64,000 bases of DNA from Rhizodiscina lignyota (Eukaryota). The stretch covers positions 3,534,001 to 3,598,000 of the forward strand of contig ML978121.1 of NCBI GenBank assembly GCA_010015805.1, in the 5' to 3' direction. Positions 8,364 through 50,600 of the stretch are shown here, in pieces (the stretch's first letter is position 1; each line of letters opens with the position of its first letter). Both the position numbers and the translations under genes were made by a program. The notes beneath the pieces were generated by a model. It made no database searches. It saw nothing but the letters and a program-made list of their open reading frames with translations, and was not told the DNA's origin.

Positions 8364-9301
8364 TCAAATCTTCAAGCCTATTTTCATATTCCCGCCTGTT
8401 CTGCGAACACTTTCTAACACTCGAATGAGAAGCTCACGTTTGGAGCAGGAGTAGTCAACATCAATGTCGCCTCCGTCCTTGACAAGGCCAAGGATTGCAT
8501 AGATCCTATCTCTCACATCTTCACACTCTCTTTCTTCACACAGGGATAGTAAACCGATAAACGTAACGCCCTCGCTTTCACTTTCATTCGCACGCCAACC
8601 CTGTTGCCGAAGGTTTAGCCTCTTCCGGCCACATAACACGGTTAAGCTTGAGGCTAAGAGGACCTCCTGCAAAATCCACATGCGTCGCCAATACGGTCGA
8701 CTCAACAGTACCCGAATTGCGTGGAGCGCGGCTGGATGATCCAAAGCCCAATTTTCCCAACCGTTCCATGGCCAATGCCGATGGACTCTAGCGGTGGATA
8801 TAAAAGCGTCCATCGCCTCATCGCTCCGATTAGCAGCGGCACCTAGCCAAATAAGAACTTCCTGAGCCTGGTACAAACCTTAGTTTCATCGCAGCCTCAT
8901 GTTTGAAGAGCAACTCGTACCTGTGAATAAACCTCGCCCATCGTGGCAACCTGATGGTTTCTTTCATGCACATTTCCTTGATCAATACACAGGGCGTCAA
9001 TCCATAACAATGGTATGTGGCCGCTCCGAGCAATTTGACCCTGCCAAAGAAAGCACCAAAGGTTCTCGCGGATCAGAATTTTATTTTCTACATTGTCAAC
9101 TGTAATTTCTTTGGTATTCGACGCATTGCCCCAAGTATACGAGAGTGCACAGTACCGTGGCCGAGCGGAGAGTGGGAAGACATGGAATTTCAACCGGATA
9201 TCAGAACCGTCGTCTCGATTCGCGTGAATGATTTCAACGAGCCGGATACATTTGGTATCGAGACTGAGTGGAACTTGGCTGTAAATGTCATGAGACGCCA
9301 T
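8364..9301 (-). CDS. HET-domain protein (HET-6-like heterokaryon incompatibility), 2 exons
   Basis: IRLVEI, YCALSYTWG, LWIDALCIDQGNVHERNHQVATMGEVYSQ, then an intron at about 8920-8868, then AQEVLIWLG, YWRRMWILQEV, DVRDRIYAILGL and VDYS. Confidence 0.88.
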
Positions 9302-9931
9302 CCCGAATTTGACGAACGGAACCCATATCTTGCGCTGAAAGTGAAAGGACTGCAATGAGTTGAGGAGCGAGTGGCGAGTTTCAGCCTCGCGCGTCTGCCT
9401 AGAATTGATGGCAGCAAGGCTGGTTCAATGTTGACTCGACACGTTGCAGTGCATGTCTTCCAATCGCCCCTCTCTAACAAGTACTTTCCAAATTCTATCG
9501 TGAACCGTCACCTTTACAGACTATTTCTTTAGACTCGCTTCATAGTTAGCTGCCTCCGTTGTGCGTTTAATATTCGGCCTCGGACTGGATATCCCCTGAC
9601 TTGAAGGTTATTCATGAAGCCGAACAATACGTGCGGCGATGCTACCGTAAGCGTCTCGAGCAGGAATATTACAACTTGGATTTCAAGGAATTCATAAACG
9701 AGCGGTAGCGAAACGAATTCGGCAAGGTCTTGGAAACGCATCACAATCGCATCGGACATGAGATCGGCGATGTTTCGCTTGTAAAAGATAGCTTGGCTGG
9801 GAAGAGTGCGTGAGAGCGAAGACGGCAACGATCACTGTCGGCGTGAATAAGGAATCTAATTAAAACCAATTATATCTCCCACTCAATTGTATATTGAAAG
9901 CGCTCGATGACAGAATATCGTTGACATCAGC

Positions 9932-10916: not shown

Positions 10917-11632
10917 ATTTCTGAACAATGGAATGAGAATGATCAAGATGAACTCGACAACCAAAAGCTCTCAAGCAGCCTATAATTACCCACAGTGGTA
11001 ATAAGGGACTCAGGAGCGATTGGAAGCACCGGACGATAGGTACCATCATTAAGTCCGACGACCGCTCATGCCCGCTTGAATACCGTGAATTCCACGTCAT
11101 TGGCTTCTGCCTACAATTGAATGCACACATACTGGTTTGAAGAGAGCAAATACGTTGTGGCTGTCTACCTACTGGGTGCTATGAGATAGAGATGGAGTCG
11201 CGGTGGATCGGCCTGGACGCGTCCGGAGTAATAGTCGCGTTGCACTAGTCCGAAACAGGTAAAGGGGGAATGTGGAGCCCTCGTACCTCAACCAACAAGT
11301 CAGTGCGATCACTGCTATGTTAGATAACAAAGTACTTGGTCGACTTCGTCCATTAATGTGCCTGCTTTTTATGCAATCGAACGTGTTGCAAGCCGCTAAA
11401 ATTTGTATTTACTAATTTAGATTCTGTGGCTAGGTCGGTTTTGCGCCCATGCGCTCGTAGTCGTTCGCCTCGCCGCCTGCACTGACCGGTTAGGCCAGCC
11501 TTACTGAAATTCCAAAATGCTCTTCGAACTGATTCCACTTCTCACCACTTCTCATCATCGATTCTAAACTCGTAGTTGTTTCAAGCACCCTAGACTCTAC
11601 TATTTATTCGAAACACCGAACATGTGTGAATA

Positions 11633-13552
11633 ATGGATGGCTTGACAGCATTTGCATTAGCAGGAACCATAGCTCAATTCCTGCAGTTCAGCCTTGCGCT
11701 CTTCTCTGGGGCAAGAAAAGTCTATCAATCTTCTCAAGGTGCTTTGCCCGAAAACATCGAAGCCGGCGTCATCGCCAATTTTCTATGCAAGCATGTGGAA
11801 GCTTTGCAAGTCCATGCTGTTGTGGCTGAGCAGGATGCGGACACAAGATTAATCTGCCTCTCTCGATCCTGTGTTGAAATTGCTGGGGAGCTCGTCTCTG
11901 CCTTAGAACGCATTAGGTCGAAAGGCAAGGGTAAATGGTCCTCGTTCAAGGCGGCATTATTATGTGTGTGGACACGGCCAAAGATTGAAGAATTGCAAAG
12001 GCGGCTCGACACGATGACACAACAATTACAACTGTGTGGAATTGTTTCTCTCAAGTAATAGCCTTTGATCGTCTTTGCCAACTCACGCTGCTAACGAAAA
12101 GTCTAGTGCACAACTTGTGCGAGCAACGAAATCAACAGACACTGTCCATGACGAGCTGAAGGGTCTTCGAGAAGATATTCGGGCACTTACCAATCTCTCT
12201 GTTCAAAGACCTAAGGAACTAGGCTTCACTTGGGAAACTGGTCGACCTGAAGATCATATTTGTGTTGATGATGGACTAGGCCCAGTCTTTTATCTGCCCC
12301 GAGATCTCTGTGCTTCCCGAAAGGTAACCTCAAATATACGACTATCGATCAATTATCAGGGCTAATTATTTTTTAGTTGTTTCAGAGTACTATGGAACTG
12401 AAATACTCCTCGAGAAACCTTCCTGGGCTACATCAAATGCGACGAGGTCATTTTGTAGTATTCAACTGGAGCGACACAGCCACACTCAATATACACAATT
12501 GGAGCTCCTTGATGAAAGAAGGGCGCGGCATCAAAATCTCCTTCATTATGTGTACTTGGCATGGGTTTCCAAGGAATAAATGCTTACGATGCTTCAAACC
12601 AAGGAAACAAGGTGCCCAAAGCCGACGGCATCAGATCTGGTCAGTAAATGCATCAACTATTCCTTGAGACTTTGCACAAGTGGTAACAGTAACCAGCTCC
12701 TCGTGCGGCTTGGACCTTCGTTATGTTGAGCCGGACGTCATACCCTTCGAACCTGAAGACATAAGTATAGGGATGAGTCCAGATACGTATCGCAACCATC
12801 GTTTGAAGTCGCTCTCAACCAGTCCCCGAGGAACAAGAAAAGAAGATAATAGCGCTCCAACAGTCCCATTGGCGCCATCCAACCTCGAATGCAAAATTAA
12901 AGATGAAGAAATCCCAATCGACTTTGTATGCCGCCGAATAGTGCTTAAGTGGGAACCGATGTGGAATCTAGTCTATCGGTATCTTTACTGCCGTTGCGTG
13001 ATCCGGCTATCTACTCCATCGCGGTTGGAAAAAGAGATGACAGTATTCGCTCTTGCCCCATGTCCAAGGCATAATGACATTGGTGCGAATTATTTGGACT
13101 ACGGAAATATTGATTATCACCAGGATCCGTACTTCGACCGTTATGGAGGATATGATTGTTTTCGGGCTATGGTACTCTTATGCGGCGAGAACATCTATAA
13201 AATATTAGGAAGTGATAAATTCTTGAGTAAGGAGGAAGTTGATACTGCTGCTGACAAATTACTGCTGCATGAAGAAAGGAACTCAGGCGCCGTTAACAAC
13301 TCCTGCCGTGAACTCTTTTTGGAAGTTAACGACTATTTGCAAAGAGACGGCTTCGATCTCTCGAGCGAAATCCTGCAACGTCTTGAAAAGGAAAAATTAC
13401 GGAAGAACAAAGAGAAGGATGAACTCCTTGACATTTTCTCTCTCAGCGAAATACCGCGAATAGATTTCAGTGACACACCGATAGTTAAAGAAGTGGCCGA
13501 GATTTTGGACGGAAAGTGGTTAGGAAGGCCGCATTGGGCAGTTGACCCATAA
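11633..13552 (+). CDS. Multi-exon protein with a fungal STAND/NACHT N-terminal helical domain, a probable ubiquitin-like domain and an unknown C-terminus
   Basis: MDGLTAFALAGTIAQFLQFS...KWSSFKAALLCVW...IEELQRRL is typical of NACHT N-terminal domains. The next exons read HICVDDGLGPVFYLPRDLC...FQSTMELKY...LPGLHQMRRGHFVV...NWSSLMKEGRGIKISFIM...CLRC. Canonical introns lie at about 12055, 12324 and 12640. Confidence 0.6.
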
Positions 13553-13859: not shown

Positions 13860-14826
13860 TCAGTTCCCATCCTCGATCGTCAGATTCCCTAATCTGTCTT
13901 TTATGAGCTCCCCATGGCCCGCAAATCTGTTCTTCTTCGCCCACCGCTGAATCGCACCAAAATCCCGACACCGATGCCACCCGCCGTCGAAATCGTAAAA
14001 GTCTTCTGTGGTCGCTAACGCCAGGTCTGCATTGCACGTGAGGCTTTGCCGGATCATGTCGACGCAGTGCATGCTGTGGTTAAAGCCAACTCCGCTCGGT
14101 GCAAAGTACGAATTATTCGGATCGTTGAGCCGCTGTCTTATGATACCCTGTGACTAATGAGCGGCATCCTCGGCTGGCTTTCGTACACGACGTATGGAGT
14201 ATGGATATTGATGACGATGGACTCACCAGACAGTGGAGCTGATGGAAAACAGATATCTGATAGATGCCGCTATTTGGATCGTCTGGAGGTGATGCAGATT
14301 CCGGGATACTGTGAGCAGCAATCCAGTCTTTTGAGAGCCTCACAACGCCTCCATCCTCTAAGACCTCTCGTCAGAAACGCTGATATAACTAGGAAGAGAA
14401 CTACTTTCGCGTGACTTACCTGTGTATGTGATGGATCGCCACCAGTGGTCATTCTCAGTAGAAGGAAATACGGACTCTTGTTTGTTCTCGAACGTTGTGC
14501 GCTGACCATATCTCAAGAGTGTCTCATCTATATGTGATACTTAGCCTTCCATTCTTCAACGATCGTACCTCGTGGAAGGGGACTTTACATTCTGTCATAC
14601 GAGAGGGCAGAATCGCTCCTCTCATGTATATGAGCCATATGATGGGACAGAATATTAAGAGATTGGCAAACTGCACTACCATTAAATATTTCCAAAGGGC
14701 CGCTGGGATACCAGGCTGTTTCAGTCTGTCTCGCGGCTCCCCGTGTTCATCAATATGGTCCTCCAAAGCAGCATAGTTGTATCCTTCCAGTTTGGAACTG
14801 TTTCTCGGAGACAGGAAGTTCTTCAT
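13860..14826 (-). CDS. DUF3328 / UstYa-like oxidase A (type II membrane protein, two HxxHC motifs), 4 exons
   Basis: N-terminal YAAL plus a TM helix, then IYQISVFHQLHCL, FNHSMHCVDMIRQSLTCNADL and WHRCRDFGAIQRWA. Confidence 0.92.
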
Positions 14827-14876
14827 GGACGATAGACAGATTAAACGAGCGGCAACAGTTCAAGATGCTTTTGCCA

Positions 14877-14904
14877 GGCAAGAATATGAGGCAAGAATAT
14901 GAGG
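14877..14904. repeat. 13-bp perfect tandem duplication (GGCAAGAATATGA x2) just upstream of DUF3328-A
   Basis: Seen directly in the sequence. Confidence 0.8.
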
Positions 14905-15358
14905 TGGAGGCCGATACTTAGCGCATAAGCCGGGCCATGGAGTACTGACTTTAGTGGCAGATGCAAAACACTGTACCCTCTGTACAATGGCGTATTAACA
15001 TCAGGTAACACTGGCGACCGACCTGGGACACGAGATTCAGGGATTATACGAAAGCTACTAAAATCTCACTTGGAGTTTCTTGGATTCGGCTAGCGGAACC
15101 TACGGCCACGGCTTTTAAGGGGAAGTACGGCTTCGGCCAGACTTAGCCACTTTCACGCAAAGAAGACCGAAACCTCAATCGGCGAAGATGACTATGTTCG
15201 GGTTCTTGTGATCTGCTGGACTACAGTTTCTGGAATGATCGATAAAGCGAGGTTTGAGTTCAGAAATTCAAGAGCTTTTGCACAAAACGTGTAATGAACG
15301 GTAAAGGGGATGCCCTCACTAATGACACTACATGATACATCCCTTGGTCATATATCGT

Positions 15359-16504
15359 TTAGAATACAATTTCTGGTAGCTTCCCTCCTGACTTCTCTCC
15401 TCTCCCCTTCGCGTTCTGCTTGACTCTCTCATCGACCCATTCTCGAATCTTTCCAAAGTTCCGGCAGGTATGAGGGTAGTTCGAGTCCACATATCTGAAG
15501 CCGCCAAGGAAGTCGTAGAACTTTGTTGGGATTGGTGTGAGATCACCGGAACACATTATATATTGGCGTATCTGGTCGATGCAGTGTCCTGGCTCGAGCT
15601 GTCAGTAGAGTTTTGTTCAGAAGATGAGCAGGTAAATTGAACACTACCTTTGTGCAACACCTCGAAGTTCGCAGTAGCTGGAGGTGGCTCGTAATACTCT
15701 GGCCAAAGCATCTGACGGATCTGATTCTGCGAAACACAGTTAGCGACAAATTTTGGTTCCAGAGAAGTTGTGCTTACAACGCAATGTAGTGTGTGGAACA
15801 TATCCAACCTGAAACCCTGATCAGTAACTGATTGAAATCTGGCTTCAACGGAGAGTTTGTCTACCCGACCAAATATCCTTCCTCGCCACCAGGCATTTTC
15901 GCGTAAGCTTCCTTCCACTCCGTTGGAAATGCAGCTCGAGCTTCTTCCTCGGTGATCATAAAATAACGATCTTTCCACGTTAACTCAGAATTTCCGGCCA
16001 GAGCACACAAAGATAACTCACCACGAAGAAGTTTCTCCCAGGCTTCGTCGAGTTCAGGAGTTGGATGGCCGACATAATCGATTGGCCCTGGATCCGGGAC
16101 CCAGGCAGAACCGTTCCGTAGCCATGCTGGACTGCCTTTGAACTGTATTTGCTCAACTTGAATTGCGTGCGCCGCTGGTGCTAGATTTCATGCATATTAG
16201 TACGGACTACGGAACCATTCTGAGAGTTTAAGAGCTTGATCGCAGATAGAGGAGTGGTTGGGGAGATACCAAAATCAGTCGACCAGCCTTTCGAAAGCGA
16301 TCCGACTCCAACTCTCTCATGTTCTGCTGAGACGCAACCTGTCTGCCGTTTTGCGTAGAGATACGAACTCGATATCAGAGAGATCACAGTTACAGTCCAG
16401 GAAATGATAAGGGAAATTCGGAGGAAATGATTGCCCCTGCTAATAGATGTCTGATGCTCCACTAATGCGGAATATTCATACTTTGAAAACGGATTGAACT
16501 TCAT
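15359..16504 (-). CDS. DUF3328 / UstYa-like oxidase B (two HxxHC motifs), about 5 exons
   Basis: MKFNPFSKYEYSAL plus a TM helix and GWSTDF, then YVGHPTPELDEAWEKLL, RLDMFHTLHCV/NQIRQML, LHK/GHCIDQIRQYIMCSGDLTPIP and HTCRNFGKIREWV. Confidence 0.92.
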
Positions 16505-17563
16505 CGTCGAATCCGCGAAATCGAAGACTGGACAGAGAAACAATACTGATGTCGAGAGTTGAGAGCATGGTTCTATCCAGAAATGGATGAAAATTGGTAA
16601 TCAGCTCTGTCGTGTGGTTGAAATAAGATACTACTTTAAGAATGTATGCTCAGCGCCAGCTGGTTGCGATAGCGGTTATCCTGTCAGCACCACTTGTAGA
16701 TGAGATTAAACGCAGTCTGTGCGTTGTTGACCGAATGAAGGCTTTGTCGCGTTAAGGAGAGATCAATGCACGCACACAGGTGTACGATAATGTTTTGAAC
16801 CGAGGGAAGAGCAGTCCGGCCAAGCACAAGCTTAGAGCAGGTTTCAGCCTACATCTGTGGCCCCTTGGCACGGAGCTGAAGTTGGACAATATAAATTAGA
16901 ACACGATACGGATAAGGGGAGTACCTATGCTTATGTAACACTCTCAGGGGCCAATCAGAAAAGCCCACACAACTCCGGACTTCCCCGCGTCTGCCAACGG
17001 TCTCCACAACACCATCCTGCAAGTACAGCTATTCCCGAAGTCCAGACATTAAATCGGGCACGCCAACTCAAAGAGGTAAATGTTCATGTGGTAGTGATCC
17101 CGATAGGGCGTTTCGTTCGCTCTGCTCCTGGCCAAATGTGATCATTACTTGTCATGTCAACCTCGATTGTGGCAAAGACTCGCGTGCTTGCAAAACTTCA
17201 GGTTCGACGTCGTCGGTCGCTTTAACTACTCTACTAAGCAGGTTGGGTGAGGCTGAGGAACGTTACTGTACCTAAAGTCGTATATCACCCGGTCGTCTTC
17301 TTCTATTGATATTCATGTTTCTTGTTCATCGTCCATCAGCGCTACCGGTGCGTTCCTGCGGGCCGTGGCAATCATTCGCCTTTCCGTATCAGACTATCTT
17401 CCAGCTCGTGGTCAGATTCGCCTCGCGACAGTTAATTTACCGGGGTCTTGTGAGATGTATCCAATTCAAGGGGGAATGACATTCCTATTCCTACCTCCTT
17501 TGTCGAGCTCACCTGAACACATTTCCATCGTCAAGCCATTTGTATATCGCTATACACAGCAAC

Positions 17564-18514
17564 ATGTCTGAAAGCGTATACGCTCCATTAGACAGAGAGG
17601 TAGAGGACTCTCCTATTGGAGTTTCACCGCGCCGTTGGCAACAGTATTTTTACCTCTTACTTGCCTTTTACGCTCTCTCTGTAGCTGTACTGGTTCTGGA
17701 ACCATTTCAGCAACGCGGATCTGCAGGGATCACAATATTTCCCGAGTGTAAGTCTCTCGTTCAAACCCGAGGGAGACTTAGCTAATACGGGGTTGAGCTA
17801 GTTTCAAAACACCAAGTGACTTTCAGGGAGAATGTCACCTTCGAGCGAGACATTCCCGGTATCAACAACTCGGTCTGGAACTCTCTACTCCCTGGTATGT
17901 GGTTCGGCTCTATCTCATGCCGATTTCCGCGAACCATAAAGCAGCAATGACTGAATATGAATAGAGGGAGCCGGTTTCATCAAAGTCGACGAACCCACTC
18001 GCTTCGGACTTTCGGGTGGCTTTCCCCTTGAAGACCTTCCAGGAACTGCGGAGCAGTACTGCATTTCTATGTTCCACCAATTAAATTGCTTGGTAAGCTT
18101 TTAATGCTTAAATGTCTTCTACATCAAGCTGGGTGGGTATTGGGGCTGATCATTTCCCAGGCCACTTTGAAGCGGGCTTTCGAAATAGTCAAGCAGTCTC
18201 CCAGATCGTCAGAGCCAGACCTTCTCCTAGAGCACGCGGCTCATTGTTGGGATTACCTGCGCCAAGTAAGTCCAGTAGACAATTCCTGCCTTGTAGAGTT
18301 TATGCGTTGACCACGTAATACACAGGCCATTATGTGTGCGGCCGATCTGACTCTCGAGACCGCCATCGTGAAAGACGGGAAGATGTTGAGTAGCGTAGAT
18401 GGATGGGACAGCACACACCAATGCATTGATTATGGGGAGGTTTATGCATATGCATACGAACATCGATCCAATCATAACCAAGACGGGATCATCAACGAGG
18501 GTGAGAACCGTTGA
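17564..18514 (+). CDS. DUF3328 / UstYa-like oxidase C (first motif altered to HQLNC), about 5 exons
   Basis: MSESVYAPL plus a TM helix, then WNSLLP/EGAGFIKV, ISMFHQLNCL, EHAAHCWDYLRQ/AIMCAADLTLE and GWDSTHQCIDYGEVY. Confidence 0.9.
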
Positions 18515-18750
18515 TGTGGGCTTGTCGCCGACTCTCTCCTGTCAAAGCTTCATCGCCGAGACTTTTGGTCCTTTCTAGCTCTACGTCTACTTGCCTCTTC
18601 AAGGCTTTGCTTTGCTTACTGCAATCTCCATCTGAGCTTATTCCGTGCAAAAAGTGGTGGAACAACGACGGGTGAGTGGTATCACACGATAATTGGCGCC
18701 TAGGTGGAACTATTTGAGCATCGGGCTATCAAGTCGCCGCTCTCAGGGAC

Positions 18751-18875
18751 TATAAATATTATGCAAACGTGTCGCCGCAAACACATCAGGCCGCTCGAAA
18801 GTCAATCTCTATCAATCAAAATCAGGTTCGTATGATACATTGAAGTTCTTTCAAACTTCTGGCTGATTGCAACAG
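18751..18875 (+). promoter_or_regulatory. TATA box (18751-18758) and probable 5'-UTR intron (18826-18875) of the small peptide gene
   Basis: TATAAATA followed by a 50-nt GTTCGT...GCTGAT...CAG intron-like segment upstream of the ATG, which is in TTCAACATG context. Confidence 0.55.
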
Positions 18876-18936
18876 AGTATCCGTTCGGGACGAAGATCTC
18901 CAAACAACGTCAAACGTAACGTCCCCAAGTTTCAAC

Positions 18937-19119
18937 ATGAAATTCATCACTGCATTCTCCTTGGCTCTTGCCGCTCTCTTCGCAGCCCCGGCCATCGCTG
19001 CACCGACTCCTACCGAGGGAAGCATGACGCTCGAAGTGCGTGATGCCCAGGGCAATCTGCAGAGCCGCAAGGTCTGGCTCTGCGACTCTACTCCGGGTTT
19101 CTGCAATGCCGTCGCCTAG
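18937..19119 (+). CDS. Small secreted peptide (60 aa), candidate RiPP precursor
   Basis: Clear signal peptide MKFITAFSLALAALFAAPAIA, pro-region APTPTEGSMTLEVR-DAQGNLQSRK and C-terminal VWLCDSTPGFCNAVA. Codons mostly end in C or T, the start context is good, and the gene sits between DUF3328-type genes. Confidence 0.8.
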   Translation: MKFITAFSLALAALFAAPAIAAPTPTEGSMTLEVRDAQGNLQSRKVWLCDSTPGFCNAVA

Positions 19120-19742
19120 AGCTTTCTGGAAAGGATTTCTGTTAAGATAGCAACGCTTGGTATTGCAAGTGGTTGAGCAGCACCACCATTTGAAGGTGCG
19201 GGGAGTCGTGGAAGGGGCTTGGATGCATTTGGTTCGAGGAGTGTAGTGTCTTTGTTGTAGCTGCTTTAGAAAATCGATGTGAAAACTATTCTGGCAATAT
19301 TCTGGCTGTAACGATGAGGGCTCGTTGAGGTTAAACTCATAAATTGCGGCAATCTCTGCTTCGATAAGTAGACTCAACAAAAATGTCTTAATGATGTCTC
19401 TGGCATATCAGTCGCGATTGAATTGCTCTGTTTCAACAGACGCGATAGGGTGTGCCAAGCAATATTGTATATCCGTTATATGACGGCCCAAAGATTCGAC
19501 GGGCCTGCTCGTATTGACGCTCAGGGGCTTCGACGTAAGCGCTGAGTTAAGAAGATTTAGCTTCCAATGAGCGATTGCTTATAAGAGTAACCGATAAGCC
19601 CCGTCTCCTGCTTTATATGAATGACTGAGACCGTAGTCGACTTATGATCGGACCATCTTCTTCATTTTATAAGCGCATAGCCGCGACTCAATCCACTTGT
19701 TTCATCATTTTTGCGAAAGGCAAACACTAAGTCGGGATCAAT

Positions 19743-20507
19743 ATGAACAAGTTTGTACCCATATCTTTAGAAAAGTATGTGCATTAGATTCGCAAGTTGT
19801 GCAACTAAGAAAAGCTCGCTCATACTTGCAGGACCGGCGGAGAAGGCACGCCGAGCGATGTAGAATCAATTCTCGACGACGATGAAAAAGAAGAAGCAAC
19901 ACTCCTATCCCATCTAACGAAGATCAGCCAAAACTCTAAGCTGAATACGTTGCGAGACTCTCCAATAAAGATAAAGATTGTGGTCCTCGGCCTTCTCTTC
20001 ATCAGCGTATTCACGGCCGGTATCGTCATTCTGCGGCGCTTCGGGAAGCATACTTGGATTCCATGCGGTACCACCGCTGCTGAGGCCCGAGCTGCAAACT
20101 GCCACTACGAACCTATGATGAGGGCGTGGATCCCTCACGCTTGCTACTTCCCGGAGCCGAGCGAAGAGTACGACCCCTTCCACGACAGAGAGTGGTTTTC
20201 GGATGAGAACTTGACGGTGCCGGTGGACATGCGGAAGCTCGAGGAGGGAGTAGAGAATTACCCGGTGTACTCAAGACACTTCCATCAGGAGCACTGTCTC
20301 TATGCTTGGAGGAAGCTGGCGATTGCCGTCGAAAGGAAGCTCCCGTTGCTCGACAGCAAATCGCACGACGTCTGGCATTCGAGCCACTGTTCGAAAATGA
20401 CCGTCGAGATGCTGAAAGCTTCCTGGAACGGAACGTGGGAGGATCTTTGGGGAGAGAAATCAACTCGTTCTCCGACATTGTTTCTGGGATGCAAGGAAAT
20501 GAGATAA
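19743..20507 (+). CDS. Divergent HxxHC-HxxHC protein D (DUF3328/UstYa-related subfamily with CGxTxxEARAxxC motif), 2 exons
   Basis: Exon 1 MNKFVPISLE(K) at 19743 and an intron GTATGT...CTAAG...CAG ending at 19831. Then a TM helix, CGTTAAEARAANCHYEPMMRAWIPHAC, FHQEHCLYAWRK and WHSSHC. Confidence 0.8.
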
Positions 20508-20674: not shown

Positions 20675-22447
20675 TCAGATTTCCGACCATTTCTGCACTT
20701 CCATCACTGGCATTTGGCCAGAAGATACCTTCCGAGCAGTAGGCTTTGCGTTCCTTGCCCAAGGTGAAACACCGTCTTCATTATACTTAACGCTGATAAG
20801 TATTACGGCTTGCCCATGTTCTATACTTCTTCGAACGAACACAGAGATGGACGCTCCGGAGTCGAGAAGACCGATGGCAGTGTCAGTCGCAGGTGTGCCA
20901 ACATTAAAGTCCGTTCTTAGCATTTGAGCAAGAGAATCGAGGTCATTCATCCAGACCGCCGGAAATCCAATAACAAGCGAAACCGTGATAAATGAATCAA
21001 TACGAGTCTCGTTCTCCTCCAGGGTTCGGTCATTCAAAGTCGTGTACACGCAGAAATAGTCAAGCGGCTTCGCTGCGCTTCGGACAAGCCGCAATCCAGA
21101 CGTCTTCGATGAAATTTGATATGTCAGCTTGATTGGAAGCTCGCACACAGAAAAGCCATGTGGCGCGAGGGAACTCAAATCCCAACGCAAGTTGGACGTG
21201 TTCGGGTCCAACATAGCTCCATAAGTGGAGGTAGTGCCCACTTGTGGCTGTGGAACATGGACAATTCCCATCGCGAGAGCTTCCAGTTTGAAAAGCTTCC
21301 AACCGGATTCTCGAGACAGCTGAGTAAAGCCGATCCTAGTATACTTTGGTCTTGATACCCCATCCCCCTTCCTCAGGAGAACACCAAACCTCATATGAGC
21401 CCGACCACCGGACCTGTTGTGATAGTTCCTTCTGAGGGTGCAATTCAATAACATCAACAGTATTCCGCTGAATTCGTTTCCAAAAGTGCGATCAAGCGAC
21501 ACCAAAGGGTGCTCTAAGCGCACACCTCGACTTGTGATAGAGGGTGGTTCGAAGTCTCGCCCACCGAAGACATGGTGACAAAAATTTCCACAGTTCCTAA
21601 ACTCAGCCGGAGAGGCCGCAAGCATACCGGTATTTGGAAGACTCCAAAGGGAAGAAGGGTCGAAAGAAGGTTCCAAAACGGCTTTGGTGACGCTCCATGC
21701 GAAGATTGAATCGTCATCATGGTTCCTTATAATCTCGTGCTCCAACCTGATAAATGCCTTGGAACCCTCGCCATACAGCAACGGCATGTTGACACCGAAA
21801 ATACCTAACAAACAATACGCCATATCTTCTTTTCTCGTAGTGTTGCGATTGGATGCCCATGACATCTTCTCCGCAACGCTGGTGCTTCGGCGGAAATTGT
21901 GGAGTAGATGGTATTCAGTAATGCCCGTCACCCTCGAAATCTCTGCCCGAAGGCTCCTCTTTGTCCCCAGATCTTTCCATGTTGCATCATAGAAGATGAC
22001 AAGAGGCGGGGCCAACAGCTCCTGCAGTGTCCAGCCGCGTGAGAACCATGTCGAGGCTCGGAAAGAGGTTAGTGTTTCCTCCGCGGAGCGATAGAGGTAG
22101 ACATCGGCAAGATACGCATAGCAGACCGTTGACCGTTCATACCAAACATACATTGAGTTGATCGCTTCAGACAACTCTGCACTACTCGCCTTATTGATGC
22201 AGCAGGTATCTATCCAAGCCCATTCAAAGCCATCCTCGCGTGCTATTTTACAAAGGTCAACGATCTTGCGCCATCCGCTAGTCTTCCTCTTCTCCCTCGT
22301 AAGGCCGGCCTGGACATCTTCGAAAGATATTTCATCATCGCCCCAGCGATGTGAGAGAATAGCATAAAGTGGTACTGACTCTTCATGAAATTCTCGCAAT
22401 ATGATTCTCGTATCGTTCGGAGCTGTCGCGGTATGGAGAAGGCGCAT
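20675..22447 (-). CDS. HET-domain protein (HET-E-like N-terminal HET domain, no NACHT/WD40), intronless
   Basis: MRLLHT, YAILSHRWG, WAWIDTCCINKASSAELSEAINSMYVWY, WFSRGWTLQELLAP, KMSWASNRNTTRKEDMAYCLLGIFGVNMPLLYGEG and SIFAW. Confidence 0.93.
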   Translation of the reverse strand: MRLLHTATAPNDTRIILREFHEESVPLYAILSHRWGDDEISFEDVQAGLTREKRKTSGWRKIVDLCKIAREDGFEWAWIDTCCINKASSAELSEAINSMYVWYERSTVCYAYLADVYLYRSAEETLTSFRASTWFSRGWTLQELLAPPLVIFYDATWKDLGTKRSLRAEISRVTGITEYHLLHNFRRSTSVAEKMSWASNRNTTRKEDMAYCLLGIFGVNMPLLYGEGSKAFIRLEHEIIRNHDDDSIFAWSVTKAVLEPSFDPSSLWSLPNTGMLAASPAEFRNCGNFCHHVFGGRDFEPPSITSRGVRLEHPLVSLDRTFGNEFSGILLMLLNCTLRRNYHNRSGGRAHMRFGVLLRKGDGVSRPKYTRIGFTQLSRESGWKLFKLEALAMGIVHVPQPQVGTTSTYGAMLDPNTSNLRWDLSSLAPHGFSVCELPIKLTYQISSKTSGLRLVRSAAKPLDYFCVYTTLNDRTLEENETRIDSFITVSLVIGFPAVWMNDLDSLAQMLRTDFNVGTPATDTAIGLLDSGASISVFVRRSIEHGQAVILISVKYNEDGVSPWARNAKPTARKVSSGQMPVMEVQKWSEI

Positions 22448-23045
22448 CCTCGAGACGTTCAGCGAACGATATTTGCGATGAGCTTTTGGCTCCGAATAAC
22501 GCGATGAAATCCGTAAGATGTGCCATGAATATGACAATAATTTTGAAGCAAGAACAAAAAAGACACGAGCAGGGCGACAAGGCGGCGGCCGACAGGATGA
22601 GGCTAAAGCGAGGCTAAGGTGGCGCTAATTTTTCATTTTTCTCGTATTCCCCTATTACGCTCTCATAGCCTTCAAGGCTCCTCTTTGCTGGCATATTAGT
22701 CTCTTCAAATGATACAGATAGTTTATCGATGTATGTGGAAAGGAGGACTTCATCAAAAATAATGACATTTTATCCAGCATGCAGTCAACGGAAAGCTTCA
22801 CTGGTATGTAATCCGCCAAACTCGAATTGGACATTCATCGTCGTGGGTTTTGTTCATTCATGCTCATAATATCTGTAGACGTCATCATATGCCTCTGCAA
22901 TTGTCTCCTACCCTATTCACAGTTCAAGTTCTGATGACAGCTGTGCCTGTTCAACTCAAATCCGCTCTACTCAAAGTTGGTCAGCACGATACCTATCAAC
23001 TTATATGTTTGCGCAATGTTTAGACCTCAAGATTACTGCGTTAAA

Positions 23046-24308
23046 TTACTGCAGCAGAGCATCCTCGAATGGAAACTTCGACAGGACTTCGATACCCGTT
23101 TCGGTAATCAGAACTTGCTGCTCCAGCTTCACTCCTTCAGCCCCGCCTTCCTCCCCGATGTAGCTCTCGACACAAATGATCATTCCTGGCTCGATAACAC
23201 CGTCGTAGCCAGCATCTGGGAAGTCTCCGCGGTCGTAGAGGGCGGGGTACTCGCCCGTCATTCCACAGCCATGTGCCGAGACAAAGTAGCGGTTGGCATA
23301 GTATTTCTCTGGGATTTCCCACGCCTTGTCGGCATACTCGCGGAGCGTCATGCCAGGCTTCAGAATTCCCATGTTATGGGTTACCTGCTCGTACGCGATC
23401 TTGTACAGCTCCTTTTGAGCGTCGGTAGGAGGATCAGGCCCGGTATGAAAAGTTCGCGAGAAGTCCGAATAGTATCCATGACAGCCGACTACGTCAGTGT
23501 CCAGTGCAACGAGCTGGTTTTCGCCGATAACATAGCTTGACGTCTCCTGGAACCACGGGTTTGTTCGCGGACCGGCACTGAGCAGCCGTGTTTCGACATA
23601 ATCGCCGTTCTGCTCGATGACCGACTGGTGCAGGACTGACCAGAGAGCGTTCTCGGTGATGCCTGGACGGATCGCATCGCGAAGCTTGCCAACAGCAACC
23701 TCAGTCGCGCGCAGCGATGTGACGACACATTTGATCTCTTCGGCGGATTTGATGGAACGCGCAATTTCGACGGGTCTCTGGGCGTCGACAACTTTGAAAC
23801 CGAGCTCCTTAAAGGCAATGGCGACGTTTGCGTTGAGGCGCTCCAAGCCAAGCGCAACGTTGGAAGGTTTACCAACAAGCTCGGTGATCAAATTGGCCAT
23901 CTCTTCTGCCCAAGAGCGTTCTCGTTCCGCGATCTTGGGGCCAGCAGCCCCGAAGCTGGCTGTTCTCGCAGGACGCACTTCGTCGACTGTCTCGTACCCT
24001 TCACCTAAATGCAGGCAGCCCGTGAATTCGAACAGAATCGAGCGATTTGCAGTAAGTAGCAAATAACGCGATGCCGGGTTACGCGATGTGTAAACCTGCA
24101 TGTTTCGAGTACCGGTAGCATAGCGGATGTTGACCGCATCTGAGAGAATAACAGCGTCGATGTTTTGTTTCACCATTTGTTCCCGGACACGACCGAGTCG
24201 GTAGAGACGCACTGCTTTAAGATCAATGCCCTCGCTTTCAGGAGCCCGATCCAACAGTGCCATGTCGGAGAGGTCACTTCTTCCAGCATGCCAGTCGAAA
24301 TTCGCCAT
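23046..24308 (-). CDS. M24B metallopeptidase-fold enzyme, DddP (DMSP lyase)-like, intronless
   Basis: IDLKAVRLYRLGRVRE, NIRYATGTRNMQV, ETRLLSAGPRTNPWFQE, LDTDVVGCHGYYSDFSRTF, HGCGMTGEYP, CVESYIG and VKLEQQVLITETG. These contain the pita-bread metal ligands D, D, H, E, E. Likely ATG at 24308. Confidence 0.8.
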   Translation of the reverse strand: MANFDWHAGRSDLSDMALLDRAPESEGIDLKAVRLYRLGRVREQMVKQNIDAVILSDAVNIRYATGTRNMQVYTSRNPASRYLLLTANRSILFEFTGCLHLGEGYETVDEVRPARTASFGAAGPKIAERERSWAEEMANLITELVGKPSNVALGLERLNANVAIAFKELGFKVVDAQRPVEIARSIKSAEEIKCVVTSLRATEVAVGKLRDAIRPGITENALWSVLHQSVIEQNGDYVETRLLSAGPRTNPWFQETSSYVIGENQLVALDTDVVGCHGYYSDFSRTFHTGPDPPTDAQKELYKIAYEQVTHNMGILKPGMTLREYADKAWEIPEKYYANRYFVSAHGCGMTGEYPALYDRGDFPDAGYDGVIEPGMIICVESYIGEEGGAEGVKLEQQVLITETGIEVLSKFPFEDALLQ

Positions 24309-25120
24309 GTTCGAAAGTGTCAGTTCAATTGAAATGGCTTTTACGAGACTCGCTATATATATCGACAACTGTGAAGTCTGAGTATGGCGTATCTCGAGGG
24401 AAGGATTGACGAGCTACGTTTGGCAGTATGCACAGAGGAATACGTCACCAATCCCCTCACAAGGATCTTACTGTAATTCGTTTTGCTATAAATTACTGTA
24501 TAAGGATACAATGCGAACTGAAGTGTACATAGCATACGACTAGCGTAAGCAATAGAAGGGAATTTTACCAAGGCGGCCGAAGAAAGTACTAAGGTACTAC
24601 ACTCCTTACACAATATTCAGCGAATAGAAGTCACAAAGGGTGGAGTGTTAGCAAAGCCTGATGAAATAGTTACCGTAAATGAGAATCTCAGAATTTTAAC
24701 TTATGATCCTGGAATTCGAAGAACTTCCAAAATGTGTGATGTAGCAGCGGACCGGAGCTCTAACTCCTTTCCATGATAGTACAGCTGTCGTACAACGAGC
24801 TTTGAATTAATACCGTCTGCTAACGTCGGCTTTAGAAAGCAAGTTCTCCCAGTCAATTGCGAAGATGCCATCGATAGATAACAAGCAGCCCCATGAAAAG
24901 GTCAATTAAAGCATCGTTATAATCCGAGACATAGCTTTAGTATTCTACAACTATGCTCTCGTTGGCTCGGAACTCCTGTCAATGAGCAAGTCTTTCAGAC
25001 ACGAAAGAACATTTTTCAGTATCCGAAATGTACCTTGCACTTCATCTTTATCTCTCAGTCCTTTTTTAACACCCTAACCATATCCTTCCACGGGCGAAGA
25101 CATGATATCCTTCATCACAA

Positions 25121-26336: not shown

Positions 26337-29300
26337 TCAGCCCAGCATGGCACCCAGACGCTCCAGAGCCGATGGTCCCTCATCAATCTCAATCTGTATT
26401 TCTCCTTCTTCCACTTCGCCCAGAGTGGTGACCTCGGCCTCACTTTCAGCTTCCTCTGGTCCTTTGTGACCGCTCGGGTTCTCGTCAGAGCCTTGGCGGA
26501 TCTGGTAATCCGCTGGACCTCCAGTGTAACGTTTCAGATTGGCTACATGCCCGAACCCATCGGTGGGACCATCGCCAGTGTCTACTTGGTTACGATTCAG
26601 GAATGCCGTATATTCTTGGAACCGTTGTGCAGTGACCGCTTCGGTGTGACGAGTCTCGGCCAGTGATGGTTTGGCGTACCGCTCGACCGGGACATCGTCA
26701 TCGCTATCTGAGCCATCGTCGGACCGCATCATAAATCGATCATTGTCCTCATCTTCAGAGTTCCCATGAGACTCTTCAACCTCGTCTTCCTCCTTTGGTC
26801 TTTTAATAATTTCGAGGACTTTATGCTTGCCTGCCCAATCGTTCAGTGGCAAGGCGGATGGAATAGCACGCTTCCGATGAGGAACCTGTGCATGCCCATC
26901 TCCGCCCTTAATACCACTCTCGACCATAGCAACATGTTCCGCATCCTCAAAATCTCTATCTTTCTCGGCGTCATCGAATAGGAGCAGCTCCTCGCCAGGA
27001 TGCACGACTCCAGCTTTTGTTTCGACATCGCCGATGGTTTGAGCTTGGTCATCGACCCTCTTGTGATGGCGAGTCTTCTTTTGCATTCCTTGCAATGCAG
27101 CCATATTCGCTGCGCTAGAGATATGCTTGCCGCTTGCAATCTTTCCAAGCTCCGCTGGAAAGAGCCACGGGAAGCTCATCAGGGGCATGAACTTTGGTAA
27201 CATCCTGCGTTTTGGCACCTCTCGACCTCCAACTGTCTTCGTCTGGCCACATTCCGCTACCGCTGTTGTGATTTCGTCTGCAGTGACTTTATACATTGCT
27301 ACAACAAATGCCCCCAGTTTAGAAATCTCGGCGCCTCCAGCCTTCTCGATGCAGATCTCGCGGAACCTATCTTTGAGTGCGCTTGTGAGGTTGCCGATCT
27401 CTTCGTGGAATTTGTAGTCGTTGGATTGCGTGTTGTGCTGCAGAACGAATGTAGTCCAAACCTCAAATTCAGTCTCGATAGCATGTTTAGCCATGATCCT
27501 GCGCACGCCGTCGTCGTAGTCGCTTTTGATCCCTTTAACGACTCCAAGGAGCTCCGCCGATTGCTCTTCCTTATATGCGTCCAAAATGCGCTTGTCGAAC
27601 GGCGCATTGTAGAAAGGTTTGAAGTCTATCAGACTGACACGGTCGTACATTCGTCCCAGGACCTTACCTGAACGGTAAGTCTTATCCTTAGCCTTCTCCA
27701 TGAAGTGTGGCCACTCCTTCGGCTTTAGTTCTCTCGTCATTTTCGCCGGACGGCCAGATTTTGGATAATCCACAGCTAGTGCATGGAGTTCCGCGAGTTT
27801 GAGGCATTTGCTATCGAATACTCCAACGTCACTAATATCCGACCATGCGAGGTGCGCATGCGCGATTCGAGGGAGTTGGTCGTTCTTAATGTAAGTGATG
27901 AAGAACTTTGTGATATCTTCAACTCTTACTTCGCGGTCAATTTGATCTGGCTTGGGAGGCCTGAAATCCATGGCCTCTATATTCCAGTGGTGATATGGAG
28001 GAAGCAAATCATGGTCCCAAAGAACCATGTAGTCGTCTCCGTCCAGGTCTCCGCCGGAACACATGTTCGCGAGGTCCCGATCGCCCGTTCGTGGCAGCAC
28101 AACGACATCCTTCAGGTGGCGTAGCTCAGGTACATCAACAGCCTTCACAATGCGGATGTCTCCCGGATGTAAAGATGGATTGCGAGCAAGCATGCAAACA
28201 CCAGCTTTGACTTTATACGGGCCGGTGAAAGGAGGGTCGCGAACTTGTACGAATATTTCCGGAAGGCTCTGGATTCGCTCCTTCGCGGACGCGAATTGAC
28301 CTGGCTGCTCCTCTTTGTAATATCCATGCAACGTCTCTGTCTCATCAACGCAACCGAGAAGGAAAGCGCCTTGATCGATCGTGATTCGAGCCTTCTCCTT
28401 GAGATATCGAATGTTCCAGGCGCGCCAGAGATGGAGGACGGACATCATGAAAGGGTCTTCAGCTCGCATAAACCCATCAAGAATCATCGCTGCCACAGTC
28501 AGCGTCATCTGATTGAAGTCTATACGCTTCTGGAGCAGCGATAGCGCGATCTTCTCATTTTTCATTGCATCAGCGAGCTCGATGAGTTCGTTTTCCAGTT
28601 TCCGCATAAATACTGCATCCGCAACTCCCAATGCTGACAGCAAAGTTATGATTTGTCGGTTCAGCATCGACACCGCAAAAGATGAATAGCGAATAACGTC
28701 GAGACCCTCGTGCTTGGCGGGAAACTTGTACTGGCTTCGGCGGATAATAAGCTCCTGTATCCCCTTGATTTGCGGATCGACAGCGAGCACACCTTTGCAG
28801 CCACCCATGCGGAACTGAAACAATGAGGGATATTCTTCGTTGATATTGTCAATGCCGAATTCCTTTGCGATCATCTTTGCTAGGAAGACTGAGATCCTTC
28901 CAACACCGTCCGTGAAGGTGTATCCGTTTCTCACTATATCCTCCTCTCCCTTAACCTCGACGTGGACGCCATGAATAGACCTCGTTGTGGAGAAGGCTTG
29001 CCCAAGACGCGCTGCCCACTTGGCAACAACTCGAATATCTGTCAAGTCGCCCATCCACGTGCGGATATGTTGCGCCCGTAGAGTCTCGGTGCTAGCGAAG
29101 AAATATGCTCCATGCTCACGGAATTGCGAATTACCAAAGGCAAGGAATTCATAGTGTCGATCGCCGATACGAATGCCGTTATTCATAGCGCGCATGATGC
29201 GGTCGAATATTGCTTCTTGGGTCTCGCTGTCTTCCTTTGCAAAGATCTTGCCTCTCTCGTCGACAAATTTGACTCGTAGAAATCGGTCTTCGAACGCGAA

Positions 29301-30947
29301 GAACTGCCTTATGATTCGATTGGACGTCTCAAGGACCGGTGTCGCATAGTAGATCATGGAAGGCGATACCTGAGCAGCTCGCATGTACGTATAGTGACCC
29401 CCCTTTGCCTTTCTCGGTTGTCTTGGTAGACGAAGGTCGAATATCTTCATGGGATCAAAGTATCGCACTTGTGACTCTGCCGCTTTCTCCAGATGTCGCA
29501 CCGCAAGGTCTTCTTTCATGATGACTAATTGTTCAAGAAACTCTCGGGATATGTTATGCTCGTTGATGCATCCGAGTGAAATGCAGACCTCAAGTTGGTA
29601 TCGAATCCGAAATGCCAGATGAATCGTGTCAAGTTGAAGCAATGTTGCGGAGGGGGACATTGCGTCAATCGGTGGAAGGTCTAGAGTTTGCCAAATTGCG
29701 GCCTCTTTTCCATCACCCATGATACGAGCGATTGGCTCGTGTTCGAGAAAGTGCACATTGTAGTCTCGGAGGGCTCGACAAAAGATATCGTAGGTCGTCT
29801 TCTGATTCCTCTGGCTGCCAAGTTTGAGGCAGAAAGTTCTCCACCGGCCTTAATCTGTTAGCCACATTTAAAGCAAACGGAGAGCATTCTTACCAATATC
29901 AACTACTGCACTCTCTTTCCTTAACCTTACCGAAGAAGCCGCAAGTCCATGGGCGTCACTAACGATATCTGTTTGGCGATACCAGGCTCTCCACTCATCC
30001 CATGTCCTCAGTCTCGGGTCATGCGTAGCCTCGATATTGTCTGTCTTGCGAAAGTATTCCGGTGGCGAAGTGACAGAGAAGACAAGTTCGCGCTCTTCGT
30101 CTGATTGGAACGTCTCAAAGACAGTATGTAATGTTTCCAGTGGGATCCTAAAGCGGAACTCAGCCTTCGCATTCGGTCGAGCTGGGCGGGGGTGTTTGTT
30201 GACCGCGCTTCTCGGAAGATGGAACATGATGGTGATTTCCCTGAAGCGTAAGTTCAAGGTAAACTCAACGGAATGTGAAATTTCCGTCTTAACCGAGCAC
30301 ATTGTCATCATGGATTTTTCGCCGTACATAAATCCGAGGTCCAAACTATCCAGGTACAGCGTAATGCGCTGGGGGTAAAAGTATACAGGATCGACGGGAC
30401 TTTGGTGTAAGCCATATCGTCCTCTAGGCTCGAGACGAGTGCATATGAGCGGGATTTCGCGATCGTTTTCCGAGTCTCTCAATGTGACTGGCTGTCCAAC
30501 GCCTTGCCAGAACGCGCGATGCGGTGGCGGAGAGAAAGTCACATAGGCGGTGTTTTCTCCAATAACTTCGATCCTGAAAATTCTACCCTCACGTGAGAAC
30601 ACGCGATATAGATCCAGCGTCGAGACAGCCCATGGTAATTGGTTCACACGAATCTTGACTTCAAATAGTCCCCGCCAGTCTTGACTGCCGTGTACAAGTG
30701 GCCGTTTGGGCGTTGCGCCACTATTGGCGAAGGCAGGGGAGCTCGTAGCTCTTTGATAGTCGGTTGTAGTACCAATACGACTTTGAGGAGCATATATAAC
30801 GTTCGATTGTTGATCAGAATCCGGTCGAAGCAGAGGTCTGGTTGGTTTTGGAGGTGTTGGCTTTCGCGCTTGCTGATTGACACGAGCTTGCCTGAACACG
30901 CTAAGCAGCTCCTTTGTGGAGTCGGATGTGCTAACGTTTGGATCCAT
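26337..30947 (-). CDS. Eukaryotic RNA-dependent RNA polymerase (RNAi; SAD-1/RDR-alpha-like), 2 exons
   Basis: N-terminal RRM-like region, ETSNRIIRQF, FLAFGNSQFREHG, FTDGVG, FQFRMGGCKG, RNPSLHPGD, catalytic CSGGDLDGDDY and AVDYPKSG. Intron at about 29893-29849. Confidence 0.95.
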
Positions 30948-41130: not shown

Positions 41131-43413
41131 ATGATATTCCACATTTTCCTACTCTTTCTTACGGCCATTACGGCTCTTTCAATACCGATGCGAAACCCAT
41201 GTGATACTCTCTTTCAAGCAAACAAGGCACAAATTAAAGCTTCATCGTCAGGTAGGGAACCAATGCTAACTACGATCTCTTCGAGAAAGTTAGGACCTTT
41301 CAATTGACAATTGAAGCAGCACAGCCCAGTTTCAAGCCCAGCGAAGTAACCGCCTGCCTCAAAGATGTACCTATCAATACCACACTCGCTACAGCCCTGA
41401 TAGAATACCTCGAGACCAACCTACAATTTCAGTCGACGCTCGCATATTTGAAGTCGCCTCCACAGTCTTACCCGCATCCCCCACTTGATCTTTTTGGGGG
41501 TCTCGCTGCGATAAAGCAAAACGTTCAGGCGAACGCGTACGAAAATGAGTACGATTTCGAGAAGGATATCCACGTTTTGGTAGCGCATGCCTTTGATGGG
41601 CACCTAGCGGTGGTACCTTTCCTTGTCGGGAGCTTTAACTTCAATAACAACGTTCAATTGGTCTCTATTTCCTTGGACGGATCGTCGCCACCGGAGGTCT
41701 ACTTTATATGCACGTTGCTCCTGTCAAAGCACTCGAGCATCCGCTAACTGGCAATTCACAGCTGACATCGCTACCAAGGACGCATCTCCATTGGTTCAAA
41801 TAGATGGAGTCAACGTTGAGGAGTACATCTTGTCATTCCCAGCGGTCCTCCAAGACCCAGATGCGCAGTACAACGATGCCTTTTACACCCCGACAAATGC
41901 CTTGACACTTGTAGGGGCTGGCTCATTCACCAGCCAATTCTTCGTTTTCCCCGAAGACAGCACAAAGTACACCTTTAAAAACGGCACCACAACCACAGTT
42001 CTCAACACTGCGACCCCGCTCACGACTATCGACTATCAGAGTGGGCAAGACCTGTTTGAAAAATACTTGATCCCATCTAACACAGCTCCATCCTCGAACT
42101 CGACGGCTACTGCCACGGCGTCCACTCCGAACCCGACCAAGGCGGCCGCAGAGCTGGCTGCACTGATCCGCGAAGAAGGCTATCCAAGTCCACTGGTTGC
42201 CTCGCTCGACACCAGCATATCCGGATATTTCCTTCCCAATGTTCCAGACACAGCGATCTTAAGTATTACAGGGTTCGCGGCATCCTCTAAGAGCACGTCG
42301 AACACAACACAGCGATCTGCCTCTAGTTTTCAGAATGCTGCGCAAGAGTTATTCACCAAGGCTCGAGCGTCTGGAAAGACCCGTCTTATCATCGACATGC
42401 GTGGGAACCTTGGAGGCACCGCCGATCTTGCTTTCGGCATCTTCAAACAACTCTTCCCGCAAGAGAAGGTCATCAGTCCCCGGCGGTTTAGAATTCACCC
42501 GCTTGCCGACGCCCTTGGCCAAGTCAACTCCGCGCTTGGTTCTGTAGACTCTTCCGAGCCTTCAGGTCCGAACTTCTTCCTGGATCAGGCTGCGCCGTTT
42601 AACTTCGAGGATTACGTTAACTCACCCAGCGGGAAGCCTTTCAATTCATGGTCAGAGCTATCTGGACCTGTGACCGTTCATGGAGACAATTTCTCTAGGA
42701 TGCTATTGCAGAAGATATCGGATCCTGCTTTTGACCTTGCTACCGGAGGGGTAGTCTTAAGTGGCTTCGCAAACGAGGCCAAGCTTCCTCCGCAGCCCTT
42801 TGCGCCTTCCAATATCACCATTGTAAGCCGTTCTCATTTGCAGAGGTTGCTTGTACCTAACATCATGCAGATTACAGACGGTAGATGCAGCTCGACCTGC
42901 GGAGTTTTCACCAATTTGTTACTGGACCAAGGAGTTGCTGCTATCACGTTCGGTGGCCGACCCGAAGACAAGCCTATGGCAGTCATCGGCGGCACGCAAG
43001 GCGCGATAGATCTGGATGTATTGAACATCCAGCAGCTCGCAAAGCTGTTTCTCGAAATGGTAGCGAATGAGAAATCCAGGGAAAAGTTCCACCTCTCTGC
43101 GACACTCGAAGCGCCGTTGCGGCGTCTCGCACAGCCCTCACCATTAAACCTTGGATCGTCAGGGTTCAGCCTTAACTTCATGGACCACATTGGTAAAGAC
43201 GACGAAACCATGACGCCGCTGCAGTTTGCTCCCCCAATAACGGCAAACTGCAGAGTGTGGTATATGCCGCAGGACATTGCCAACGTGACGAACACGTGGG
43301 AAAGGGTTGCGAGTGGGAAGTATACTTGCGTGGGACAAAAGGCGACGTCGACTCAAACCCCTCGTGCAGCGCCCCCTCTGTTCGCGCATGGTGTAATTGA
43401 TATTGCTGCTTAG
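41131..43413 (+). CDS. Secreted peptidase family S41 (CPAF-like; UstP/PhomP-type), 4 exons
   Basis: Signal peptide MIFHIFLLFLTAITALS, FQSTLAYLKSPP, DGHL, QDPDAQYN, LIIDMRGNLGG, TDGRCSSTCGVF (catalytic Ser region) and FGGRP...IGGTQG. Confidence 0.88.

Positions 43414-48363: not shown

Positions 48364-50600
<2,237 letters not shown>

Follow-up and report, generated by a model that had tools for sequence, protein, structure and literature searches.

We describe a small open reading frame (ORF) of Rhizodiscina lignyota, P0001, and propose that it encodes the single-core precursor of a dikaritin-like peptide, the ribosomal substrate of the double-HxxHC enzymes encoded on both sides of it. P0001 lies at positions 18937 to 19119 of the forward strand of a 64,000-nucleotide stretch of contig ML978121.1, hereafter the window, to which all unprefixed coordinates refer. 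It sits inside a 6.65-kb block of four such genes, A to D (13860-20507). We put the probability of this reading at about 0.5; that P0001 is a real gene we consider very probable. The original prediction had placed a secreted-peptide gene close to four oxidases. The four oxidase genes are indeed present, each with a double motif, and the secreted-peptide gene is supported by a signal-peptide filter, by codon usage, by a promoter box and by its position among genes A to D.

The flanking genes provide the context for our proposal. In each of the proteins encoded by genes A to D, a single hydrophobic helix lies near the N-terminus and 29-31 residues separate the two HxxHC motifs, and in genes A, B and C the double motif and the transmembrane helix are accompanied by a match to the UstYa/DUF3328 family (PF11807). 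Gene A (13860-14826, reverse strand; 250 amino acids) consists of four exons (14826-14601, 14527-14420, 14357-14227 and 14147-13860) that match the public protein model; its motifs are HQLHC and HSMHC, and its last exon matches PF11807 with an E value of 7.5e-14. No relative of gene A was found in a sequence search of the PDB. Gene B (15359-16504, reverse strand; 279 amino acids in our six-exon model) carries HTLHC and HKGHC and matches the family in its last exon (E 2.7e-12). The UstYa/DUF3328-like gene C (17564-18514, forward strand; 232 amino acids in our five-exon model) matches less strongly, again in the last exon (E 1.3e-5; 25.6 bits against a family cut-off of 25), and has HAAHC as its second motif; its first, HQLNC, carries Asn instead of the second His. 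Gene D (19743-20507, forward strand) has two exons and encodes a 235-residue single-pass membrane protein with HQEHC and HSSHC. P0001 begins 422 nt after gene C and ends 623 nt before gene D, and genes A and B are within 5 kb, so that DUF3328/UstYa genes are found within a few genes of the candidate precursor. Genes A and D are identical, letter for letter, to the public proteins P0030 and P0014, both named hypothetical proteins of R. lignyota (a Dothideomycete of the order Aulographales), and P0030 carries a precomputed PF11807 domain. The source tags of these two proteins differ by three, which would fit genes B and C lying between them with no number assigned to P0001.

In CctR, the DUF3328 hydroxylase of the cyclochlorotine pathway, O2-dependent hydroxylation requires an HxxHC(x)nHxxHC motif, which binds two coppers (PMC12435403). 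According to the same source, the enzyme resides in Golgi, endosome and vacuole membranes, which it spans with one transmembrane helix, its N-terminus facing the cytosol and a helical domain the lumen; DUF3328 enzymes are reported there to hydroxylate, halogenate and isomerise aliphatic C-H bonds. Replacing a conserved His or Cys of CctR by Ala abolished activity (PMC12435403); since HQLNC lacks the second His, gene C may be inactive or may serve as a non-catalytic partner.

P0001 itself comprises 60 codons and a stop (ATG at 18937, TAG at 19117-19119), and its translation, including the residue landmarks, two Cys and absence of Tyr, is exactly as originally described. Residues 1-21 (18937-18999) resemble a signal peptide: Met-Lys is followed by an unbroken hydrophobic stretch that runs to A-I-A, the predicted cleavage site, and the 19-residue hydropathy maximum of 2.11 falls at residues 3-21. 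Residues 22-45 (19000-19071) form a pro- or leader-like region with A-P and T-P at 22-25, L-E-V-R at 32-35, D-A at 36-37 and R-K at 44-45, in which R35 and R44-K45 are the sole basic sites and may have a role in processing. The candidate core, residues 46-60 (19072-19116), contains W47, C49, F55 and C56, the two Cys forming a C-x6-C pattern. The ORF as a whole has no Tyr, two Cys, one Trp, four Phe, 12 Ala and four Pro. Its 60 residues hold no KR or RR kexin site, and we agree with the original prediction that RK is non-canonical for Kex2. P0001 is single-copy, with no tandem cores and no repeated 4-mers. The original prediction had also described a staged processing layout. The residues it named are all there; the staging is a reading of patterns in a peptide without KR or RR, and it was overstated, because X-Pro and X-Ala pairs are unremarkable among 60 residues that include 12 Ala and four Pro.

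Several signs argue that P0001 is a gene. A signal-peptide filter, a crude heuristic written after P0001 had been seen, was applied to the ATG-initiated ORFs of 40-200 amino acids, and P0001 was the one that passed among the 310 in the window. The filter thus accepts the N-terminus as a putative signal peptide for entry into the endoplasmic reticulum (ER), as originally proposed; it accepts cleavage sites earlier than A21 as well, which makes the 21-residue length a putative one. In 40 first-order Markov shuffles of the window, a mean of 0.475 ORFs per 64 kb passed (maximum 2); for the 2.8 kb of intergenic DNA in the cluster, this corresponds to about 0.02 signal-like ORFs expected by chance. 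Codon usage, scored as log-odds with 12 Pfam-supported ORFs from the window as the training set, was 0.231 bits per codon for P0001, a value reached by only 2.8% of 289 small ORFs, compared with 0.09-0.16 for genes A to D and with -0.218 and -0.146 for the other two sense frames at the same position. The G+C content at third codon positions (GC3) was 0.67, against 0.56 for the training ORFs.

The upstream region adds to these signs. A TATAAATA box (TATA box) lies at 18751-18758 on the forward strand, 179 nt 5' of the ATG; this octamer occurs twice in the window when both strands are counted, against a shuffle mean of 0.53. The start codon has A at -3. A candidate 5'-leader intron of 50 nt (18826-18875, forward strand) is suggested by the elements GTTCGT, CTGAT and CAG, and its splicing would take a short upstream ATG out of the P0001 leader. 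The genes of the window have short GT-AG introns, which identify the DNA as fungal. A comparison of four promoter regions revealed no shared 7-9-mers. On the reverse strand, a stop-to-stop frame of 165 codons (18910-19407) spans P0001 and its 3' flank and has no Pfam match; we estimate that about two frames of this length occur by chance in such a window.

No other candidate substrate emerged near the oxidases. P0001 is the sole signal-peptide-like small ORF in the cluster, no segment resembling a precursor with KR- or RR-separated repeats was found between 10.8 and 23 kb in the window, and neither a non-ribosomal peptide synthetase (NRPS) nor a polyketide synthase (PKS) is present in the window.

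The family to which gene D belongs seems to represent a so far uncatalogued branch of DUF3328-type copper enzymes. A protein database contained 15 relatives at 42-56% identity, giving a family of 16 sequences drawn, besides R. lignyota, from Pyrenula, Xylogone, Talaromyces, Pseudogymnoascus, Cadophora, Chlorociboria and metagenomes. None of the 15 has a precomputed Pfam domain, and three of the 16 members match PF11807 at E values up to 1. In the family alignment (A1), H162, H165, C166, H193, H196 and C197 are invariant, as is the pattern C-G...A-R...C-x-Y-E-P-M...W-I-P...C, and an N-terminal stretch rich in Cys is conserved as well. The AlphaFold2 model of gene D has a mean pLDDT (predicted local distance difference test) of 76.9, with most of the lumenal part at 87-94. 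It places a transmembrane helix at residues 55-81 and the two HxxHC motifs at the starts of long helices (161-178 and 191-210), in agreement with the published account of CctR. No relative of the family was found in the PDB by sequence, and a Foldseek search of the PDB with the model returned nothing at E <3.8. Gene D therefore has one transmembrane helix, a double HxxHC motif set on paired helices and UstYa genes as genomic companions, and to judge from the model it appears to be like a DUF3328 enzyme in motif and topology without being filed under the Pfam UstYa family.

The genomic company kept by this family elsewhere supports the view that the window contains a peptide-modifying cluster. 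A metagenome scan with gene D alone gave no loci; with alignment A1 it gave eight (L001-L008), seven of which we took as fungal. The eighth, L008, was excluded for its weak match (E 6e-4) and bacterial-looking ORFs. A UstYa-like gene stands beside the D-like gene at five of the seven fungal loci, recognized by Pfam or tblastn at L005, L006 and L007 and by tblastn together with HxxHC ORFs at L001 and L003; the contigs of the remaining two are 1.9 kb or shorter. Classic repeat precursors occur at two of these loci. At L006:9645-10029 (forward strand), a signal-peptide exon and an intron are followed by four KR-separated units that contain Tyr, F-P-G-I-Y-I-G or F-T-G-E-Y-V-G; this precursor lies downstream of the D-like gene at a distance of about 1.2 kb, with the UstYa gene 3 kb away. 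At L007:35-350 (reverse strand), about 1.3 kb from the UstYa gene, a signal-peptide exon and an intron likewise precede eight D-I-L-S-Q-D units split by KR or KKR, a repeat core without Tyr. The pairing of D-like and UstYa genes thus recurs in clusters that have a precursor close by. A further locus, L005, encodes a 201-residue signal-peptide protein (L005:13247-13852, forward strand) with R-Q-Q-E-N-V-K-L-T-D repeats and no dibasic sites, 3 kb from two tandem D-like genes and from genes for a UstYa protein, a major facilitator superfamily (MFS) transporter and a Zn2Cys6 regulator; this protein may be an unusual precursor.

Based on these observations, we propose the following route from P0001 to a modified peptide. 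The hydrophobic N-terminus would direct the chain into the ER, where signal peptidase might cut near A21. In the lumen of the ER or Golgi, the peptide could then meet the lumenal domains of the products of genes A, B and D, and perhaps C. These proteins would function as UstYa/DUF3328-type, binuclear-copper, O2-dependent oxidases that act on the last 15 residues. Most likely, F55 or W47 would become joined to the side chain of an aliphatic residue, in the manner of the Phe-Leu link of victorin and the Tyr-Ile link of ustiloxin, and hydroxylation or desaturation would accompany this; a disulfide loop between C49 and C56 is also possible. Finally, a protease whose gene lies outside the cluster could cut off the leader at R35 or at R44-K45, and secretion of the product would follow. 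Of these two candidate sites, R-K is non-canonical for kexins, and L-E-V-R has an aliphatic residue at P4 and Arg at P1, as kexins accept.

The closest parallels are the dikaritins, among them ustiloxin (UstA with UstYa and UstYb), phomopsin and asperipin-2a (AprA with AprY). As in these systems, a precursor with a secretory signal lies beside several double-HxxHC DUF3328 genes, and the secretory pathway is the expected site of modification (PMC9233826, PMC7329392). In contrast, the dikaritin precursors contain many KR-separated cores and their rings are closed through Tyr, whereas P0001 has one core without KR, RR or Tyr, and the window is without a tyrosinase, a methyltransferase or a cluster peptidase. 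The original prediction had taken the absence of Tyr to imply new linkage chemistry, which was overstated. Victorin from Cochliobolus victoriae depends on DUF3328 enzymes for a Tyr-free ring in which the side chain of a C-terminal Phe is joined to an internal Leu (PMC9233826). DUF3328 enzymes act on aliphatic C-H bonds as well (PMC12435403), and the repeat core at L007 is itself free of Tyr. The candidate core of P0001 offers comparable positions in F55, L48 and other aliphatic residues; the victorin precursor differs in being multi-core and Kex2-processed, and its product is chlorinated (review PMC9233826).

Two further systems bear on our proposal. CctR resembles the products of genes A to D in its motif and helix, and the gene D model also puts the motifs on long helices; unlike the substrate proposed here, however, that of CctR is a non-ribosomal cyclic peptide, and gene C has Asn in its first motif while gene D scores below the family threshold. 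Acalitide from Acaulium album (AcaA and AcaB) is, like the proposed product of P0001, a fungal ribosomal peptide with a non-repeated precursor and disulfides (PMC10840396). It differs from our case in having no DUF3328 enzymes, a protease that cyclises the peptide head to tail, two disulfides, and an internal core with a follower. For lichen clusters, it has been suggested that DUF3328 enzymes may act on single-core precursors (PMC12048977). We found no characterised example in the open literature, to which subscription papers and supplements, for instance on AprY and ApnU, may add cases. Among the literature naming R. lignyota, no work on ribosomal peptides was apparent, as judged by title.

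Several observations weigh against P0001 being the oxidase substrate. It has no repeats, no KR or RR and no Tyr, and consequently lacks the usual hallmarks of such precursors; the missing Tyr sets its core apart from the ring closure of ustiloxin, phomopsin and asperipin. No single-core ORF like P0001 is present at the related loci. No cluster-linked protease, transporter, tyrosinase, methyltransferase or regulator was found in the window. Gene D does not reach the curated PF11807 cut-off (15.5 bits and E 0.016, cut-off 25), and an hhalign comparison of its family with genes A, B and C gave a probability of 32% (E 4.8e-4) over the motif region alone. Non-ribosomal and polyketide pathways, too, make use of DUF3328 genes (PMC12048977). 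As to the ORF itself, the signal-peptide filter is post hoc, and the antisense frame at P0001 is codon-positive as well (0.165). Homology searches gave no relative: a word-index protein search returned no candidate for P0001, tblastn against the eight related loci gave only E >1, and the exact sequence is absent from a collection of 15 billion proteins, that is, publicly unannotated. An exhaustive phmmer search gave 12 matches, all in proteins of 699-2643 amino acids. The three of these that we inspected were bacterial-type repeat proteins sharing a short E-V-R-D-A-x-G-N-like stretch with P0001, and we rejected them as relatives. In the ESM Atlas, the best score was 0.76, under any useful level. 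Since P0001 is unannotated, its relatives may be unannotated too, and a missing homologue therefore says little.

Alternatively, P0001 could be a real small secreted peptide, of an effector-like, antimicrobial or signalling kind with one disulfide, and the neighbouring oxidases could act on another substrate that is encoded elsewhere or is a non-ribosomal compound. We think this unlikely, though by no means far-fetched. It would account readily for the lack of repeats, KR sites and Tyr, and for the repeat-type rather than single-core precursors of the related loci; it also agrees with the occurrence of DUF3328 genes in non-ribosomal-peptide and polyketide clusters (PMC12048977, PMC12435403). 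On the other hand, it leaves unexplained why P0001 has two of the oxidase genes as neighbours at only 422 and 623 nt, where the chance expectation for a signal-like ORF is about 0.02, and it has to contend with a window that offers no NRPS or PKS and with the lack of any other precursor candidate in 10.8-23 kb.

Within our preferred reading of P0001 as a single-core precursor there is a bolder version, in which P0001 is the first leader-plus-single-core precursor for DUF3328-type enzymes and the four oxidases, one of them from the gene D family that escapes Pfam, install cross-links unprecedented in fungal ribosomal peptides. Such links would be, for example, Trp-to-aliphatic, or would involve Cys on the C-x6-C scaffold. 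We regard this version as doubtful.

It is improbable that P0001 is non-functional, either a chance frame between genes C and D or a stretch that is transcribed and not translated. Its absence from the protein collection and the lack of a homologue could be read in this way, as could the roughly 0.5 signal-like ORFs per 64 kb obtained from shuffled sequence and the positive codon score of the antisense frame. A chance frame would nevertheless have to unite several independent signs: a signal-like start, codon usage in the top 2.8%, a GC3 of 0.67, TATAAATA at -179, A at -3 and a position inside the cluster. Short genes are, moreover, often missed by annotation.

A pheromone of the alpha-factor type, or another unmodified signalling peptide, is a very remote prospect. 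Precursors such as Ppg1, PpgA and Ccg-4 share with P0001 a signal peptide, a pro-region, basic sites and X-Ala/X-Pro spacers (PMC7329392), and a review likens dikaritin processing to that of alpha-factor (PMC9233826). The C-terminal peptide of P0001 is likewise short and has a Trp and two Cys six residues apart. In filamentous ascomycetes, the alpha-type pheromones follow a pattern like W-C-x3-G-Q-x-C, where the two Cys are likewise separated by six residues. The motif of P0001 differs from this pattern in that W and C are not adjacent and G-Q is missing; P0001 is single-copy and without KR where the pheromone precursors have KR-flanked repeats, and a Pfam MF_alpha match was not found. In the survey by Umemura, pheromone precursors were almost never beside DUF3328 genes, with 98.6% of 216 putative precursors having none nearby (PMC7329392). 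Just as hard to credit is a longer product, a 102-residue small membrane-anchored accessory protein with an internal signal anchor, which would start at a second ATG at 18761 that comes into frame with P0001 once 18826-18875 is spliced out: that ATG is only 3 nt past the TATAAATA box and hence unlikely to be transcribed, because transcription directed by the box would begin farther downstream, and no protein like the 102-residue product was found.

Two HET-domain genes (8364-9424 and 20675-22624, both reverse strand) bracket the oxidase block, and a multi-exon gene without a Pfam match (11630-13552, forward strand) lies between the first of them and the block. Bracketing by HET genes is typical of fast-evolving, poorly syntenic fungal regions. 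Elsewhere in the window, no ORF with a Pfam match is of a kind tied to secondary metabolism. Two peptidase genes were considered as cluster members and rejected. The gene for an M24 peptidase (23046-24413) is separated from the block by a HET gene and does not begin with a signal-like sequence. S41 peptidases are found in some dikaritin clusters; the S41 gene of the window (41608-43410, forward strand; CPAF-like PDZ domain) is 21 kb away and was not counted because genes unrelated to secondary metabolism intervene. The window also contains a gene for an RNA-dependent RNA polymerase (26337-29849, reverse strand) and, near each other, two sulfate-assimilation genes, for ATP sulfurylase/APS kinase (48367-49605) and PAPS reductase (51326-52120), both on the reverse strand. 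A Ser/Thr-rich, highly repetitive coding region at 58228-60935 (both strands; high G+C of 0.57-0.58, strong GC skew of 0.15-0.23) is probably a gene for a cell-wall or mucin-like protein.

Peptide clusters with UstYa/DUF3328 genes are currently mined through precursors with a signal peptide and KR-separated repeats. The locus described here is a compact test case, in which 6.65 kb hold four oxidase genes and, between them, a single small secretory ORF, and in which no repeat precursor lies close by. The gene D family, conserved across ascomycetes and repeatedly clustered with UstYa genes, would provide a useful extra search handle for such clusters. If P0001 is the substrate, single-core precursors exist for the DUF3328 class, and a core with Trp, Phe, two Cys and no Tyr widens the known substrate range of these copper enzymes. 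If the bolder version were also true, repeat-based genome mining would be missing a whole layer of fungal peptide clusters.

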